A stretch of DNA of 32,000 nucleotides, taken from Pyrobaculum aerophilum str. IM2 (lineage in GTDB: Archaea > Thermoproteota > Thermoprotei > Thermoproteales > Thermoproteaceae). A program made the translations under genes and the position numbers. This document shows positions 6,321 through 32,000 of this stretch, piece after piece. Under the pieces are notes generated by a model. It searched no databases. It saw nothing but the letters and a program-made list of their open reading frames with translations, and was not told where the DNA came from. How positions within the stretch are numbered: the first letter of the stretch is position 1; every line of letters starts with the position of its first letter. The DNA lies in contig NC_003364.1 in assembly GCF_000007225.1 (NCBI RefSeq), positions 270,001 through 302,000 of the forward strand, read 5' to 3'.

Positions 6321-6530
6321 TAGACCCTTCTCGCGGCCACTCTGTGTAGCGGCGTCTGTCGCTATCCAGCTTTGGCCCCACCCCCGTTGCCTTCTGGCAA
6401 GGGCGAGGACTACATATGAGGTGCTCTGAGCGTTTAGTTGATTATCCCTCAAGTGCCAGGCGTCACTCTTTCCAGCGCCGGGCCTGCGCGCAGAGCGCTC
6501 TCCTGGTAATTAAGAACATAGTCTGAAAAG
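6321..6530 (-). pseudogene. 3-prime remnant of an Arch_ATPase paralog
   Basis: The minus-strand translation RQTPLHRVAARRV-stop matches WQTPLHREAVRIALEGA-stop of the intact gene at 9434. DNA ctctgtgtagcggcgtctgtcgct compares with ctctgtgaagcggcgtctgccagg at 9463-9486. Further upstream, DYVLNYQESALRAGPALER resembles NLIVYNMFVRDSRFWAGEPPPER. Broken by stops. Confidence 0.35.
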
Positions 6531-6684
6531 CTTTGCAACTAGAAGCTTTCAGCGATTAAATTCCTTGAACAATGTCTAATGAAGTTTTAAATAAAAATAT
6601 ACATTAATTAATACTGAAATTGACATTTTAATCTTTATCTATTTCTATTGCCTATTTATAACTCTCCAGGACTTTTCACGCCTT

Positions 6685-7545
6685 TTAAGTCTCTAAGATT
6701 TCCAGTAGCCATTCTAAGGGTTTTGCAAGCCCTATCATGAAGTCCTCTACGTCGCTTTTCATGCCGCTGAAGACGTAATAGGCTGTGCCTAGATCTAGCC
6801 TGTGACCCAGTGAGGCCAGCGCCTCCTCATATGCTTCGATTAGGTTTTTAAGCTCCCTCATGGTCCCCACGTCCATGGCCAGGGCCTCTAGTGCCACTAC
6901 GTATTTTAGACGGCCCGACGCGTCTAGTAGCTTTAGATATGAGGAAACGGCGTCTGCCCCTTTGGCTATGCGATACGCGAGGGCGTAGCCTAAAAGCGTG
7001 GGCCTCCCCTCGGGGTTTAATAAGTGTAAGTTGTATAAATAGGCCTTTCTAAACCTTTTCTCCCTTCGATACGCGTCTGGGTCGACGTTGCGGGGGATCT
7101 TGTCGGCGTCAAAAGCCGAAATGCTCTTCTTTAAATGGAATCTATCCGACTTGGCTAGGGCCTCCAGCAGGACTACTTTCTCGGGGAGGGTTAAGACTGG
7201 AGGCAGCAAGGCCACGTCCTCCGGCCTTCTCGCGTTTGCGGCTTTCAACGCCGCTTCTACTGCTATTATTAGTCTGTTAATATCGAGAGATAGGCGGCTT
7301 GCCAGCTCCTCCACGGCGCTGAGATCCGGCTCGCCGCCTTTCTTAGTGGCGTAACCAAGGTAGCCGAGCCTGTGGAGTATCCAGCTTTGGTGGGGGCCCA
7401 GCCTCTTGACTCTGTCCATGTGTCTCCTATAAATCGCCCCCTTGTCCAGTTTTCTCGCCTCCGCGTAGGATAGGATGAAGAGAATGCGCGGGGATTGGTA
7501 TATCCAGGTCCCCCTGCGGCCTTGGAAGAGAGACGGCAGGCTCAT
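6685..7545 (-). CDS. Hypothetical protein, N-terminal winged-helix-like segment plus all-helical body (operon gene 3)
   Basis: 286-aa ORF whose ATG overlaps the upstream stop (ATGA, 7542-7545). RILFILSYAEARKLDKGAIYRRH...SWILHRLGYLGYATKKGG reads like a wHTH. No enzymatic motif was recognised. Confidence 0.8.
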   Translation of the reverse strand: MSLPSLFQGRRGTWIYQSPRILFILSYAEARKLDKGAIYRRHMDRVKRLGPHQSWILHRLGYLGYATKKGGEPDLSAVEELASRLSLDINRLIIAVEAALKAANARRPEDVALLPPVLTLPEKVVLLEALAKSDRFHLKKSISAFDADKIPRNVDPDAYRREKRFRKAYLYNLHLLNPEGRPTLLGYALAYRIAKGADAVSSYLKLLDASGRLKYVVALEALAMDVGTMRELKNLIEAYEEALASLGHRLDLGTAYYVFSGMKSDVEDFMIGLAKPLEWLLEILET

Positions 7546-8759
7546 GCCAAGGAAAGCTCTAGGGCGAGTTCGTAAAAGTCGCCGTAGGCGGCCAGGGCCC
7601 TCTCTTGGAAATCTTTTTCGAATAGCGTGTCCCGCAAGTGCGCTATTGCTACGGCGGTTAGAATATACCCGCCTGGAACTTTCCTCATTAGCGCCTTCCT
7701 CCTCTTTGACAGCTTCGAGATCAGCTCCTCGACTTTAATCTCCGCGTCTAAGAGCCCCAAAACTCTTAAGACGCCCTTTGCCTGGTTTATATCTGTCTCG
7801 GTGAGAGTGTTGTAAATATTTTGCTTCAGCCAAGAGGCGAAATATGCTATGAATAAGTATTTCTTAGTTTTGTCTGACGCCCTGTAGAAATAGGCGATTT
7901 TCTGCAAGAGAGAGGCCCTGTCCTTGACTATTTTCTCAGGGGCCTCGCCTCCTTTTAACAACTTAGCTATACGCATTACAACCCTCGGGTTCCTAAACTC
8001 CACATAGCTCAACGGCTCGCCTACATCTCCCCCTAGTTTATTCCTAAGGAATTTTTTCATATCCTCTGGCGTTACGTCTTGGTGTAAGTAATAAATAGGC
8101 GCAATTCTGCTCTTGATTTGTAAATCGAAGTGGATCCACAACGAGGTAGGTATGGCAAGGCCGGCGGCGCCGCCCCAGCGATCTACTAAGTTGAAAAACT
8201 CCTCTACTAAATGTATCACGTCTTTATAGCCGTAGATATGTGGCTGTTCTACTAGTCTTTCAAATTCGTCAACTACTATGAAGAAGCCTCTCTCCCTAAG
8301 TTGCCTAACGGCTGAGTATACTCTGTCTAGCCTCTCCCCCTCGATTTCTAACTGTATATCTCCTAAAGCCTTAGGCTTTGTTATACTCAGCCCCTTGTCT
8401 CTCACCCAATCAAGCTTGTTGAACCATTTCCGATACCCTTCACATTCAGACGCCTTGGTGAGCTCGGCCAAATTCGAAACCTCTGAAAGTCTCACCCGCC
8501 TCCCCGCCAAGAGGATTTGATTTACCTTTAGCACTACTCCAGGTCTGCCGCTGAAAATTTCTAATAGGGCCGACAGCGCGGCCGTCAGACTCTTACCTTG
8601 ACCGTAATGTCCCGCCACGGCGCCGCCCACTTTTAATACGCCATATGCCCTCTCCAACATTCTCCCCAGGGCTGGGTTGGCGGGCTCTCCCAGCCTCTCT
8701 ATTTCTTCGCATATCTCCTCAAGAGCTGGCGTGACTGACAAGGGAATTATATTACGCAC
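7542..8759 (-). CDS. Divergent P-loop NTPase (ORC/Arch_ATPase-like) (operon gene 2)
   Basis: 405-aa ORF. It has a Walker A-like GHYGQGKS, a Walker B FIVVDEFE, and a helical C-terminal half. Its GTG start overlaps the upstream gene by 13 nt. Confidence 0.85.
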   Translation of the reverse strand: MRNIIPLSVTPALEEICEEIERLGEPANPALGRMLERAYGVLKVGGAVAGHYGQGKSLTAALSALLEIFSGRPGVVLKVNQILLAGRRVRLSEVSNLAELTKASECEGYRKWFNKLDWVRDKGLSITKPKALGDIQLEIEGERLDRVYSAVRQLRERGFFIVVDEFERLVEQPHIYGYKDVIHLVEEFFNLVDRWGGAAGLAIPTSLWIHFDLQIKSRIAPIYYLHQDVTPEDMKKFLRNKLGGDVGEPLSYVEFRNPRVVMRIAKLLKGGEAPEKIVKDRASLLQKIAYFYRASDKTKKYLFIAYFASWLKQNIYNTLTETDINQAKGVLRVLGLLDAEIKVEELISKLSKRRKALMRKVPGGYILTAVAIAHLRDTLFEKDFQERALAAYGDFYELALELSLA

Positions 8760-9388
8760 AGCTTCTCTCCCAGCAGGCGCTTTAAAATATTTTCATAGTC
8801 AACTCGCTTTTCTTCAGCCTTCTTGTCCTCCGGCTTGGCTTTGAGGTGAGAGAGCAATGCTGCATAATATGCGACTATGTCGCTAAGCGATACAAAGTAG
8901 TTTTTCCCTAATACGATCTTTACGCCTATTTTCTCCCTGATCTCCTGTAGATACGCCTCCTCTCTGCGATCTGGCTGATCTACGAGCAACAGGTCAATTT
9001 TGTAGTCTTTCAACACTTCAGTTATTCGGTACGCCGTGGGCGATATTACGGCACATGCCTTTTCCACAGCGGTGATCTTAATTGCTGAGAGAAACTCTTG
9101 CAAAACAACTCTATGTTCGCGTAGATGTACGCCATAGAAAGCCAGCCTTAAGGCGGAGCCGAGATGGCGCCTCCTCTTCAATAGGGATGTTGCGGCTTTA
9201 TGGCTGGCAAGCGATAGGTAGGCGCTCTGGCGAATAAACCTCCCGCCAAATATAACGACTCCAGCGCCTGAGCCTTGTTGAAAATATGAGAAATCTAACG
9301 ACGCAACGTAGCGAGTTGGCGCAGTCTCCATATGCCGGGCAATAGCCGTTCTCTCTGATCCCGCTGACTGCGAAATTCGCATATGCAC
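8747..9388 (-). CDS. Hypothetical protein, possible RNase H-like fold (operon gene 1)
   Basis: 213-aa ORF (GTG 9388; an alternative ATG lies at 9382). YVASLDFSYFQQGSGAGVVIFGGRFIRQSAY resembles the strand(Asp)-turn-strand-turn-strand opening of RuvC/RNase H-like folds. A later acidic strand reads LLLVDQPDRREE. No family was recognised with confidence. Confidence 0.7.
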   Translation of the reverse strand: MHMRISQSAGSERTAIARHMETAPTRYVASLDFSYFQQGSGAGVVIFGGRFIRQSAYLSLASHKAATSLLKRRRHLGSALRLAFYGVHLREHRVVLQEFLSAIKITAVEKACAVISPTAYRITEVLKDYKIDLLLVDQPDRREEAYLQEIREKIGVKIVLGKNYFVSLSDIVAYYAALLSHLKAKPEDKKAEEKRVDYENILKRLLGEKLCVI

Positions 9389-9433: not shown

Positions 9434-10438
9434 CTAAGCGCCCTCCAGCGCTATCCTCACCGCCTCTCTGTGAAGCGGCGTCTGCCAGGCGACGCGCTTG
9501 CCAATGCCCAGCTCTGCGTCTCTCTCGGGCGGGGGCTCCCCGGCCCAGAAGCGGGAATCTCTGACAAACATGTTGTATACAATTAGATTTTTCTCAATTA
9601 ACTCGTCTATTAGCTCTCTCGGCGCGTCGGGACTCCAAAGCGCGTCGGGATCCTCCACCGCCTTTGCGAGCCAAGTGCGCCACCTCTGGACGTATTCCGG
9701 CGTCAGCTCTTTGCGCCTAACTAGCTCTTCAACGACTTCGTTGATGTCCCATCGTGATCTGTACAACTCGGCGAGAAGGCCGGGGTTTCCGCCAGTCGCT
9801 CGCCACGCCTCTTCAAAGGGCGGCTTTTCGCCCGGTATCTGCTCGTACAGCTGTTTAAAGCCCTCCTTTGGCATATTCCACATTGGCCTGTGATTTGCCC
9901 ACCGGTGCCGCCCGATCTCCCTCCTCGTAACCCCCTCGCTAGTCGCTACCACTACTACTATGGCATCTACGCTTCTGGGCGGGTATTCAATAATTCCAAG
10001 AAGCGCCTTGACATAAGAGGCCGCCTCCCCCAGCCCTATTGCTTGAAAGACGTCGTCGGCCAAGATCGCTATTTTCCTTTTCCTCCGCCTTATCAGCTCG
10101 TCGGCAAGGTCGATGACAAGAGACGCCAGCTTAATCTTGGCCTCGCCCAGCGCCTCCGCGGCGGCATCCGCCAGTCTCTTCACAACCTCTTTAACATCAG
10201 TATACGCCTCGAAATACTTACGCAGAGGGTCGACGTAAATGACGTGGAATTCCAGCTCCTTGAGCAACACTGCGCTTTGTCTCAGCCAAGCCGTCTTGCC
10301 GCAACCCTCTGGCCCGAAGACGAGCTGGGGGAGGCGGGTGCTCTCCCTGGCCCACTCCTCTATTTTCTTAAGCGCCATCTCGCGGTCGGCGAATTGGACC
10401 TCTAAGCCTGGGGCGAATAACAGTTTTAACCGCTCCAC
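9434..10438 (-). CDS. Archaeal ATPase family protein (Arch_ATPase/PF01637-like)
   Basis: 334 aa. It has a Walker A GPEGCGKT and a Walker B IAILADDVFQ. The ATSEGVTRREIGRHRW block is shared with the remnant at 14660-15210. This is the typical Thermoproteales ATPase paralog architecture. Confidence 0.9.
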   Translation of the reverse strand: MERLKLLFAPGLEVQFADREMALKKIEEWARESTRLPQLVFGPEGCGKTAWLRQSAVLLKELEFHVIYVDPLRKYFEAYTDVKEVVKRLADAAAEALGEAKIKLASLVIDLADELIRRRKRKIAILADDVFQAIGLGEAASYVKALLGIIEYPPRSVDAIVVVVATSEGVTRREIGRHRWANHRPMWNMPKEGFKQLYEQIPGEKPPFEEAWRATGGNPGLLAELYRSRWDINEVVEELVRRKELTPEYVQRWRTWLAKAVEDPDALWSPDAPRELIDELIEKNLIVYNMFVRDSRFWAGEPPPERDAELGIGKRVAWQTPLHREAVRIALEGA

Positions 10439-14659: not shown

Positions 14660-15210
14660 CTACTGGAGCCGCTTCAGAGCTAAAAGGCATCTAATAAGCC
14701 TTTCCTCATGGCCTCTCTGTAAGGCGACGTTTGCCAAGCTACCGCCCTCCCAATCTCCAGCGCCACGTCTTTTCAGCGGCGGCGGATCTGCCCGGCTCTC
14801 CACGGGGGTATATCTGGCGCTAAGTCGAAATCCACTATTTTGCAGTAGAGAGATGTCGTCTATCTCCTTTAACACGTCGGGATCTTCCAAGGCTCTTTAA
14901 TACTGTCTTTTCGCTGTTGTTTAGGAATAAGATCGTAGAGTCGCTTAAAGCCCTCCCTCGCCATATTCCACATTGGCTTTGGGCTAGCCCACCTGTGCCT
15001 TCCTATCTCCCTCCTGGTCACCCCCTCGCTTGTGGCCACAACCGCCACGATGTTTTCATAATCCCCCGGCGGGTATTCAATTACGCCAAGCATCCACTTC
15101 ACATAAGAGGCGGCTTTTCCAGCCCCATCGCTTGGAAGACTTCGTCGGCGAGAATGGCGATTTTTCTCCTTATGGCGTATTTGGCCTGCTGTATTGCCAA
15201 ATAGCCGTAT
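14660..15210 (-). pseudogene. Truncated, frameshifted Arch_ATPase paralog
   Basis: Minus-strand fragments in three frames: YLAIQQAKYAIRRKIAILADEVFQAMG, ASYVKWMLGVIEYPPGDYENIVAVVATSEGVTRREIGRHRWASPKPMWNMAREGFKRLY, and EDPDVLKEIDD...ADPPPLKRR...ALQRGHEERL. These align to residues about 105-334 of the 9434-10438 product. The Walker A part is missing and there is an internal deletion. Confidence 0.7.
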
Positions 15211-15424
15211 TCTCTTTACATACATCAACTTGTTACAAGCGCGTATGGACGCGCTTGAACTCACATCAAGAAATTTCCACGGCCGCTTTGTTTCAAATCT
15301 CACGGCCTCTCCTACCGCATTTTAAATGGGTAAAACTAAAGGCCTATGCCTTATGCGATCGAGGTGTTTTATGGGGGCTTAATCGCCAAAGGCGGGGCAC
15401 ATATGCTCCAGACACCACGGCGAA

Positions 15425-30832: not shown

Positions 30833-31762
30833 TTGGCAGTAACGGCGGCCTCGGGCACGTATTTAACCCCCCTCTTTTTCAATTTCTCCATGCCAACAGA
30901 TGCGCCCGTGGGTTGTGCCACAGTCCTTGACCGCGCGCTTCCCCCATTTGCAACGGGGACTGTGCTGGCTGGTCTCGGCTACTCAGCGGCGGCCGGGATC
31001 GCCCTCGCTGGCGGATGGCCGCTGGCCGTAGTGCTGGCGGCCGCGCCTACAGCGTACATCGCCAGGCGGGTGCAGAAACTGCGCACCCTCAGGAGGGTGG
31101 CAAAGGTTATAGACTGCGACGGGCGGCTGGCGAAGCCCCTTAGAGTTGTGCCAGGCTACGTGGCGTCTGCCTACACGCTGAGGGCGGGCGTGCCCCCGGC
31201 GGCCGTCCGGGGGCTGGAGTTCCGCCCCGCAGGCGGGGAGCTCGTAGCCCACTCCCTCACCTGGGAGCACGCCCGGGGCTACGAAGTGCTGGCGACCGTA
31301 CCGTCGGTCTACGCGTGGCTTCCCGCCTATCAGGTGCTGGATCCCTGCTGTGCCTACGTGGCCAGGTTGGGGCCGGAGCTCGTGCCGCAACGCGGCCCCG
31401 TACGGCTGAAGGCGGAGTCCCCAGACGGCGATTACGCCGAGGCGGCGGCCGAGGTGCGGGGTAGCTCCCTGTGCGCGCAGGTGCAGTTCGCCCCCGTCCG
31501 GGCGAGATCTGCGCGGGTGGATCTCTACGTCCGCGGCGCATACGCACTCACCGTGATCTCCACCAGCGGCGGGACTGCGGAGGCGTGCGTCGACGTGGCC
31601 GGCAGGCCGGGCATCTACGTCTTCCGCGAGCCGATTAGCTCCGCCCGCCCCTTCGGCCTCAACGACTACGGCGTGCTGGGCCTGGGCGCCGCGGGCTACG
31701 CAGTGCGGCTGGTCATAGACATGCCCCGGCGCCGCGACTACTACACTGAGGCGGAGATCTAG
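30833..31762 (+). CDS. Hypothetical membrane protein in a GC-rich block (probably the 3-prime part of a frameshifted gene starting at 30667)
   Basis: 309-aa ORF with strongly G/C-ending codons in this frame. It has two hydrophobic helices (GTVLAGLGYSAAAGIALAGGWPLAVVLAAAPTAYI) followed by a Y/V/A-rich domain. The antisense ORF is G/R/H/P-rich and looks like a shadow. Confidence 0.55.
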   Translation: MAVTAASGTYLTPLFFNFSMPTDAPVGCATVLDRALPPFATGTVLAGLGYSAAAGIALAGGWPLAVVLAAAPTAYIARRVQKLRTLRRVAKVIDCDGRLAKPLRVVPGYVASAYTLRAGVPPAAVRGLEFRPAGGELVAHSLTWEHARGYEVLATVPSVYAWLPAYQVLDPCCAYVARLGPELVPQRGPVRLKAESPDGDYAEAAAEVRGSSLCAQVQFAPVRARSARVDLYVRGAYALTVISTSGGTAEACVDVAGRPGIYVFREPISSARPFGLNDYGVLGLGAAGYAVRLVIDMPRRRDYYTEAEI

Positions 31763-32000
31763 CGCCCCCTGGATCTCAGTATCCTGACCCACTCGTTTTC
31801 TACGCCCGTAGGCTGGGGCGTCTGTTGCTGTTGCTGAACGCCGGGCGCCACCTGCGCTCGCAACGCCCTGTACGTCTTCCTCGCCCTCCTCGTCACCTTG
31901 CCCTGGATCAGCCCAGTGGCCCAGAGAGCCTCCACAAGTATCCCAGCGCTTGTCGCACAGGTGCGCCCAGAAGGCGTAGACTGGATCATACGTTGAGAGT

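Follow-up and report, generated by a model that had tools for sequence, protein, structure and literature searches.

The window studied here is a stretch of 32,000 nucleotides (nt) from Pyrobaculum aerophilum str. IM2 (contig NC_003364.1, positions 270,001 to 302,000). On its minus strand it carries three tightly packed genes, which we number gene 1, gene 2 and gene 3 in the order of their transcription. The trio is one translationally coupled operon behind its own promoter, it recurs in unchanged order in several lineages of hyperthermophilic archaea, and judged by sequence comparison its three protein families are absent from every library searched here. We suggest that the trio is a self-contained, horizontally exchanged conflict (defence-type) module which targets nucleic acids in an ATP-dependent manner, and we put the probability of this reading at roughly 40%.

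Co-inheritance and operon structure

Among the loci fetched for comparison (cited below by their L numbers), the order gene 1, gene 2, gene 3 was found wherever the flank of the contig suffices. Besides six P. aerophilum assemblies, all of which harbor the trio at the same site, these loci come from P. ferrireducens, Pyrobaculum sp. 3827-6, one Pyrobaculum and one Thermoproteus metagenome-assembled genome (MAG), Caldivirga sp. MU80, three divergent metagenomic contigs and seven further metagenomic loci. A hidden Markov model (HMM) scan of all fetched loci revealed no stray copies of the trio genes; each is present once per genome or fetched window. The statement on synteny covers the fetched loci with flank, not those of the most distant homologues (Pyrodictium, Pyrofollis, P0016-P0023). 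Between P. aerophilum and the Caldivirga-like lineages, the trio proteins are 41-43% identical. The pairwise ratio of nonsynonymous to synonymous substitution rates (dN/dS) is 0.13-0.39 for all three genes, which are therefore maintained by selection. Such an arrangement is far beyond chance, and the trio is a real evolutionary unit. The original prediction, made from the letters of the window alone, had proposed to look for co-occurrence of the three genes across Thermoproteales and other archaea and had named missing synteny outside this genome as an argument against a common module. What we found is complete synteny in Pyrobaculum, Thermoproteus, Caldivirga and hot-spring metagenomes, with the same order at every locus that has flank.

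At the same time, few relatives exist. In 5.8 billion proteins, clustered at 90%, gene 1 and gene 2 are represented by three clusters each and gene 3 by seven. When 1.84 billion representatives were scanned exhaustively with HMMER, 19 relatives of gene 2 came up, the named distant ones being from Pyrofollis japonicus (WP_317894566.1) and Pyrodictium abyssi (WP_338248319.1); a metagenome scan started from a 10-sequence alignment of gene 2 recovered only the class of 40-60% identity. No relative was found among the IMG/VR contigs, tblastn with genes 2 and 3 gave no match in 50,697 phage and virus (INPHARED) or 72,556 plasmid (PLSDB) records, and a PHROG scan of the trio proteins returned matches at noise level only. 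The small number of relatives and the lack of viral and plasmid copies point to a rare chromosomal module of patchy distribution that is restricted to hyperthermophilic Thermoproteota.

The open reading frames (ORFs) and their junctions lie exactly where they had been predicted. Genes 1 and 2 overlap by 13 nt (8747-8759), provided that gene 2 begins at GTG 8759, and genes 2 and 3 share the 4 nt of the ATGA at 7542-7545. In seven of the eight lineages compared, both junctions are 4-nt overlaps, and the longer gene 1/gene 2 overlap of the window appears to be a derived state. At the position where the start of the orthologues falls in a 4-nt start/stop overlap, the window reads ATAA (the placement was derived from protein alignment, not from the nucleotides of their junctions). 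One G>A change would have retained the stop of gene 1 and shifted the start of gene 2 three codons upstream to GTG 8759. As to gene 1, its ORF was called from GTG 9388 and NCBI uses ATG 9382; the protein is identical to NCBI's "hypothetical protein CGL51_12750 [Pyrobaculum aerophilum]". Residue numbers of gene 1 follow the version of 213 amino acids (aa).

The TATA-like box TTTAAAAA precedes GTG 9388 by 27 nt and ATG 9382 by 33 nt. Such spacing is expected for an archaeal TATA box that precedes a leaderless or near-leaderless mRNA. Because of this typical position, we infer that TTTAAAAA is the promoter of the trio and that the transcript is near-leaderless. A/T (TATA-like) boxes 20-35 nt upstream of gene 1 were present in all eight lineages, in agreement with the earlier claim that the trio has a TATA box of its own. 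At the opposite end, the oligo-T tract TTTTTATTT (read on the coding strand) is a possible archaeal terminator of the unit. The coordinates of all features are collected in Table 1.

Table 1. Features of the three-gene module and of related PF01637 genes (window coordinates, unless an L number precedes them)
Feature	Position	Strand	Remark
Gene 1	8747-9388	-	ORF of 213 aa; 211 aa if ATG 9382 is used
Gene 2	7542-8759	-	ORF of 405 aa
Gene 3	6685-7545	-	ORF of 286 aa
TATA-like box TTTAAAAA	9411-9418	-	read from sequence; candidate promoter of the trio
Oligo-T tract TTTTTATTT (coding strand)	6588-6596	-	~90 nt past the stop of gene 3
Gene 1 D32	9293-9295	-	invariant Asp
Gene 1 D137	8978-8980	-	invariant Asp
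Gene 1 D170	8879-8881	-	invariant Asp
Gene 2 Walker A GHYGQGKS, G50-S57	8589-8612	-	motif
Gene 2 Walker B FIVVDEFE, F160-E167	8259-8282	-	motif
PF01637 (Arch_ATPase / ATPase_2) gene, 334 aa	9434-10438	-	Pfam E=1.2e-79; 45 nt upstream of gene 1
PF01637 3'-end remnant, 29 nt	6330-6358	-	86% identical to 9456-9484; ~330 nt downstream of gene 3
PF01637 arrays	L014:3319-6987; L017:4286-8368; L019:5331-7752; L020:8065-12093		directly after gene 3

Three proteins without a family

None of the three proteins had a significant match in scans of Pfam, NCBIfam, PADLOC and PHROG, and in PADLOC-DB v2 genes 1 and 3 had zero matches in 12 sequences. Sequence and profile searches of PDB with the trio proteins yielded noise or P-loop stretches. 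The trio module is not described by Makarova et al. 2014 (PMC4158269). The original statement that no named system fits thus stands; no membership was found beyond "P-loop NTPase with Walker A/B".

This general class applies to gene 2. It was rightly presented as a P-loop ATPase of divergent sequence whose C-terminal half is helical. In the Walker A and Walker B motifs, residues G50, G53, G55, K56, D164 and E167 are invariant in 14 homologues, down to 23% identity. The same homologues also share an N-terminal GEPANPAL motif, W112, P204 (in "IPTS"), D212, P258 (in "RNPR") and R281, and R218 (in "KSR") is almost invariant. Because of motif spacing, we regard "IPTS" (203-206) as a candidate sensor-1 and R218 of "KSR" as a candidate Arg finger. 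No family member reaches the gathering score of any Pfam model. The best Pfam match of the family is AAA_22 (E=2e-4, bits under the gathering score of 27), to which many members produce independent sub-threshold alignments, often over full length. Single members match AAA_16, ATPase_2, TniB, BrxC_BrxD and nSTAND3, again below threshold (for ATPase_2 there are two distant members with E=0.012-0.056). The PADLOC matches are weak, inconsistent and limited to single members as well (PDC-S27 0.0047, SspC 0.0011, AbiLi 3.9e-4, weakly BrxD), and profile searches of PDB recovered P-loop stretches only. In our reading, gene 2 would represent a small new clade of ORC/Cdc6-STAND-like AAA+ ATPases. We also considered that it is a diverged paralogue of PF01637 and rejected the idea, as hhalign aligned nothing but 57 columns around Walker A, with a probability of 11%. 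As a side observation, two short metagenomic contigs contain lone 58-aa fragments (L023:696-869 and L024:1060-1233), which correspond with 78% identity to residues 142-199 of gene 2, the surroundings of Walker B, and the remainder of gene 2 is undetectable there. They may be decayed gene 2 copies.

Gene 1 encodes a small alpha/beta protein whose opening had been compared to RuvC/RNase H-like nucleases. Seven homologues, 30-38% identical to the window copy, share D32, F33, S34, G41, G43 and V44, followed by G86, H88, D137, E143, G161, K162, S169 and D170. The Asp of "SLDFS" and the Asp of "LLLVD" are thus invariant. The Glu of "AVEKA" was tried as a catalytic residue and discarded, since it varies among homologues. 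The AlphaFold2 model of gene 1, computed from a 3-sequence alignment, is weak, with a predicted local distance difference test score (pLDDT) of 47.6 and a predicted template modelling score (pTM) of 0.46. When it was compared to PDB with Foldseek, about 47 of the top 50 matches were RNase H-like folds, none of them at E<=1e-3. The first match is RNase HII of A. fulgidus, aligned in full length (E=4.2e-3, probability 0.97, template modelling (TM) score 0.34); RNase HIII, ASKHA kinases and retroviral integrase cores follow lower in the list. From this we lean towards an RNase H-like fold of gene 1. If it is RNase H-like, its active site is non-canonical, with Phe in place of Glu in the "DE" pair.

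Specific homology to RNase HII is another matter. The hhalign comparison of gene 1 with an RNase HII profile, built from a sequence checked to be 100% identical to PDB 1i39/3p83, gave a score of 17.0 (P=0.12), equal to that of unrelated control pairs (13-18.6), and because of this result we reject the specific claim for now. Gene 1 has no match in Pfam (including RNase_HII), NCBIfam or PDB sequences either. In sum, the proposed RuvC/RNase H-like nature is partly supported: the Asp residues of both strands are invariant, and a low-confidence model matches almost only RNase H-like folds. The nearest structure is RNase HII, not RuvC, and the RNase HII profile stays at background.

Gene 1 has another peculiarity. 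Between L004 (P. ferrireducens) and L005 (Pyrobaculum sp. 3827-6), protein identity amounts to 96% for gene 2 and 95% for gene 3, with dS of ~0.10, whereas the gene 1 proteins are 60% identical, with dS of 0.76 and dN/dS of 0.38. On the DNA level, the flanks of the two loci agree to 89-99% (mostly 93-98%) and their genes 2 and 3 to 93-97%, and identity falls to 63-76% exactly across gene 1 and its promoter (L004:9950-10620). A gene 1 allele of the L005 type is also found in L001 and L016. This pattern of identities indicates that recombination put a divergent allele in the place of gene 1 only, in cassette-like manner and apart from genes 2 and 3. Local diversification of this sort is typical of arms-race components, and such a swap would be the behaviour expected of a component that determines specificity or takes part in an arms race.

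Gene 3 differs from gene 1 in quality of its model, which is confident (pLDDT 90.0, pTM 0.91) and consists of 15 helices and one small C-terminal beta-hairpin. Structure search with this model gave no match in PDB (best E=0.6, TM<=0.22) or BFVD, and gene 3 has no significant match in Pfam or PADLOC; KorB (0.043) and, in one member, wHTH-HSP90_Na-assoc (0.013) are the Pfam matches at noise level. The model possibly represents a new fold. Gene 3 was expected to be helical with a winged helix at the N-terminus. It is indeed essentially all-helical. The proposed winged helix would correspond to helices 19-30, 35-47 and 51-57 and the following loop (58-74), which has no strands in the DSSP assignment; neither a structural nor a profile match to it was found. 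The very N-terminus deserves attention. Residues 1-20 (LxxLxxGRRGTWIYQSPR, window 7486-7545) are nearly invariant across homologues that are 43-88% identical, the conserved positions being L6, R11-G12, W14 and Y16-R20, and in the model they have no secondary structure and pLDDT <70. Because this tail is highly conserved yet modelled without secondary structure, we consider it a candidate inter-subunit docking peptide.

The resemblance of the gene 1 model to RNase HII raises the question of whether the trio serves the cell itself. It could be a lineage-specific accessory complex of DNA or RNA metabolism (replication, repair, R-loop processing), in which an ORC/Cdc6-like AAA+ ATPase would work together with two further subunits, one similar to RNase HII and one helical and DNA-binding. 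The full-length match of archaeal RNase HII at the top of the list, although obtained with a weak model, would agree with such a role, as would the motif spacing of gene 2, which seems to resemble ORC/Cdc6-type AAA+. Further, the trio is chromosomal and single-copy, was found on none of the plasmid or virus records searched, and is nearly invariant within P. aerophilum. Nevertheless, an accessory complex of this kind is hard to reconcile with the extreme patchiness (a handful of lineages in billions of proteins), with a genomic location that differs in each lineage and with cassette-like replacement of gene 1, and no profile similarity to RNase HII or ORC was detected. We consider the cellular role distinctly unlikely.

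Genomic neighbourhoods and the transposition hypothesis

The trio occupies five independent neighbourhoods, which differ between lineages. In P. aerophilum it is surrounded by a PF01637 ATPase, His_Phos_1, PaREP1, MazE and pseudogenes. In the P. ferrireducens group, a Thr-rich 450-aa protein is encoded upstream, and three small genes, Csx1 and type III CRISPR-Cas are located downstream. L012 combines the trio with radical SAM, PIN and HEPN-NTase genes and L013 with Nramp, PRAI and PALP. The Caldivirga-like loci have polysaccharide-synthesis genes upstream and PF01637 arrays with PaREP1 downstream. Conflict-type or PF01637 genes (type III CRISPR/Csx1, HEPN-NTase, PIN, MazE, PaREP1, PF01637) are thus present in four of the five neighbourhoods. 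They lend moderate support to a defence role, and not more, because such genes are not universal around the trio and are common in these genomes anyway.

Different contexts in different lineages would also suit a mobile element, and the trio might derive from a transposition module of the Mu/Tn7/Tn5053 kind, as its relic or as its still active core, with gene 1 as the catalytic subunit of DDE/DDD type and RNase H fold, gene 2 as a TniB/MuB-like regulator and gene 3 as the target selector. Sub-threshold matches of the gene 2 family to TniB and AAA_22, the abundance of retroviral integrase cores among Foldseek matches of gene 1, and the D32...D137-(32 residues)-D170 spacing of gene 1, which resembles DD35E/DDD, all fit into this picture. 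The anatomy of the loci does not. A repeat search found no terminal inverted repeats around the trio, gene 1 is separated from the upstream gene by 36-45 nt only, and in L001, L004 and L005 the downstream gene overlaps or abuts the stop of gene 3, so that no room is left for transposon ends. In addition, the trio is present in a single copy per genome or fetched window and at one site in the six P. aerophilum assemblies, it is absent from the plasmid and viral collections, and gene 1 (~200 aa) is devoid of a DNA-binding domain. With no flanking inverted repeats and with such gene spacing, we rejected the transposon reading and hold it to be highly improbable.

Link to PF01637 ATPases

The PF01637 protein encoded upstream of gene 1 in the window is 63% identical to the product of the PF01637 gene directly after gene 3 in L014. 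In L014, L017, L019 and L020, gene 3 is followed by three to five PF01637 paralogues in tandem, which overlap or abut each other, are 50-63% identical to the window copy and seem to be transcribed together with the trio. The array of L017 is in turn followed by a PaREP1 gene. No PF01637 gene is found near the trio at L001, L004, L005, L012 and L013, which represent three other lineages. In two P. aerophilum assemblies (L007, L011), a 5-nt deletion (window 9912-9916) frameshifts the PF01637 gene and leaves the trio intact, with 0-1 single-nucleotide polymorphism (SNP) over its 2.7 kb. Strain SNPs cluster at 9965-10030, where the sequence shares 74% identity with a paralogous fragment from another part of those loci; this suggests gene conversion. 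This PF01637 subfamily is a recurrent but dispensable neighbour of the trio: recurrent, because the same subfamily follows gene 3 in the Caldivirga-like loci, and dispensable, because it is absent from three other lineages and frameshifted in two assemblies. The trio had been described as separate from the upstream Arch_ATPase gene. With respect to transcription in P. aerophilum this is correct; in view of the arrays after gene 3, however, the neighbour is not a random one.

We also asked if the trio could be the conserved core of a larger system that comprises arrays of PF01637 paralogues, and not autonomous. In one version, the trio would load, regulate or be triggered by the STAND/AAA+-like PF01637 ATPases, and P. 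aerophilum and the other lineages would keep reduced versions. One PF01637 subfamily (50-63% identical) flanks the trio in two distant lineages, its identity between them (63%) exceeds that of the trio itself (41-43%), and in the window, gene 3 has 29 nt of what was once a PF01637 3' end on its downstream side. On the other hand, L001, L004, L005, L012 and L013 lack PF01637 near the trio, two P. aerophilum assemblies have a frameshift in their copy and 0-1 SNP in the trio, PF01637 comprises many paralogues in these genomes, and its position is upstream of the trio in one case and downstream in the other. These observations make such a larger system unlikely in our eyes, and we prefer the self-contained module.

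The remnant itself was detected by blastn with E=3.5e-5 (local search space), and tblastn gave only a 10-aa match. It belongs to a pair of short direct repeats (6330-6358 and 6454-6488) in an ORF-poor stretch, which match the PF01637 gene at the 3' end of its coding sequence (9456-9518) and encode a part of its conserved C-terminal "AWQTPLHREA" motif. They may be the remnant of a lost PF01637 paralogue, although evidence for this is weak; a full second PF01637 pseudogene downstream of gene 3 is not supported, just 29 nt and 10 aa being detectable. Elsewhere in the window, at 14695-15321 on the minus strand, there are further PF01637 pseudogene fragments, i.e. residues 120-213 at 64% identity and a C-terminal piece in another frame. 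The corresponding region is annotated in L006-L010 with PaREP1, an Asp_protease_2-like gene and MazE.

Other features of the window

Two regions distant from the trio stand out by base composition. Between 16000 and 25000, guanine-plus-cytosine (GC) content is 35-43%, compared to 47-58% elsewhere up to 31000, and there is a run of genes for proteins of 316-475 aa, annotated as Glycos_transf_1/GT4 in L008-L010. The block is probably a glycosylation cluster of horizontal origin. In the last part of the window (31000-32000), GC content rises up to 69% and long overlapping ORFs are present at 30833-31762 (+) and 30983-31792 (-). Rfam revealed no RNA genes in the window, including the gene-poor stretch downstream of gene 3 and this GC-rich end, where no match appeared even at permissive thresholds.

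Proposed function

If the trio is a conflict module, then its three products would assemble into one complex. The AAA+-like ATPase of gene 2 would act as a sensor or switch. Gene 1, with its invariant D32, H88, D137, E143 and D170 and a topology that is probably like that of RNase HII, would be the effector that cleaves DNA, RNA or hybrids. Gene 3 would serve as a scaffold or as an adaptor that binds DNA, and would dock a partner through its conserved, flexible N-terminal tail. The PF01637 ATPases, where adjacent to the trio, would be facultative accessory components. We infer all of these steps, i.e. complex formation, sensing by the ATPase, cleavage by gene 1 and scaffolding by gene 3. Weak similarity of gene 2 to ATPases of conflict systems (BrxC/D, SspC, PDC-S27, TniB) is consistent with the proposal.

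Several points weigh against it. Firstly, no PADLOC model matched at a meaningful score. Secondly, neighbours of the trio are metabolic at L013 (Nramp, PRAI, PALP) and L020 (polysaccharide synthesis), toxin-antitoxin (TA) and HEPN genes abound in Thermoproteales, so that their presence beside the trio says little, and the three CRISPR-adjacent loci of P. ferrireducens type represent one evolutionary context. Thirdly, the fold of gene 1 rests on a model with pLDDT of 47.6, and the hhalign score with RNase HII equals that of unrelated controls. The canonical Glu of RNase HII beside the first Asp is Phe in gene 1, and the "AVEKA" Glu is not conserved. The role in defence or mobile-element control, as originally suggested, keeps the character of a proposal: contexts are mixed, with type III CRISPR, TA and PaREP1 genes in some loci and metabolic genes in others.

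A more specific form of the proposal can be formulated, namely a Thermoproteota-specific immune system built of three new families and linked to PF01637 arrays. It would comprise an RNase H-fold effector with a non-canonical site, exchanged as a cassette, an ATPase from the AAA+ clade with the GEPANPAL motif, and a protein of new all-alpha fold. In this elaborated form the proposal is doubtful, though it is worth keeping in mind.

Its appeal comes from the state of knowledge about archaeal immunity. According to a 2026 survey of 7,747 archaeal genomes, Thermoproteota have few recognisable defence systems beyond restriction-modification (RM), CRISPR-Cas and Argonautes (PMC12988326). Few known defences in hosts of diverse viruses point to undiscovered lineage-specific immunity, for which the trio is a clean candidate, since it is compact, strictly co-inherited and composed of three proteins without a match to any curated family in the libraries searched. 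Moreover, gene 3 offers a confident predicted structure that has no counterpart in PDB or among viral structure predictions. To our knowledge, the biological role of PF01637 "Arch_ATPase" genes has never been established, and the linkage to the trio provides a first genomic handle on this large, functionally opaque family. If gene 1 is an effector derived from RNase HII with a remodelled site, it would be a new case of a housekeeping nuclease fold in a conflict system. And if the module is not defensive, there are still three new protein families, possibly including a new fold.

Comparison with known systems

Four groups of known proteins and systems invite comparison. The archaeal RNase HII (A. 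fulgidus, 1i39/3p83) has, like gene 1, about 200 aa. As far as the weak model of gene 1 tells, both also have an Asp that ends the first strand and is followed by a Gly-rich hairpin, an "hhhVDxPD" strand and then a helix at matching relative position, and an invariant Lys (GK) followed by a helix with Ser, and their strands and helices are predicted to succeed each other in parallel order. Unlike RNase HII, gene 1 lacks a counterpart of the fourth catalytic Asp at the aligned position and carries other invariant residues, H88, E143 and D170.

With respect to gene order, the succession of a putative RNase H-fold protein, an AAA_22-like ATPase and a DNA-binding-like protein resembles TniA-TniB-TniQ of the Mu/Tn7/Tn5053 modules. 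The trio differs from them in having no transposon ends, in being single-copy, in its tiny catalytic candidate without DNA-binding domains and in the lack of significant similarity.

The logic of an ATPase combined with a putative nuclease is also shared with PDC-S01 and PDC-S27 of PADLOC, archaeal-enriched defence candidates in which an ATPase is fused to a PD-(D/E)xK nuclease (PMC12988326). Gene 2 matches PDC-S27 with E=0.0047 and the PF01637 neighbour matches PDC-S01 with E=0.0019, in both cases far below the significance needed for membership. Unlike these single-gene fusions, the trio has its putative nuclease on a separate gene, possibly with an RNase H fold, and a third, all-helical subunit.

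The fourth comparison concerns gene 2 and the group of AAA_22, AAA_16, TniB, BrxC-BrxD and ATPase_2. Common to both are Walker A of the form GxxGxGK[ST] and Walker B of the form hhhhDE; judged by motif spacing, a polar "TS" about 38 residues past Walker B, a conserved "SR" about 12 residues further and a helical C-terminal half would be parallels as well. Unlike this group, gene 2 possesses the unique GEPANPAL motif together with conserved W112, P204, D212 and "RNPR".

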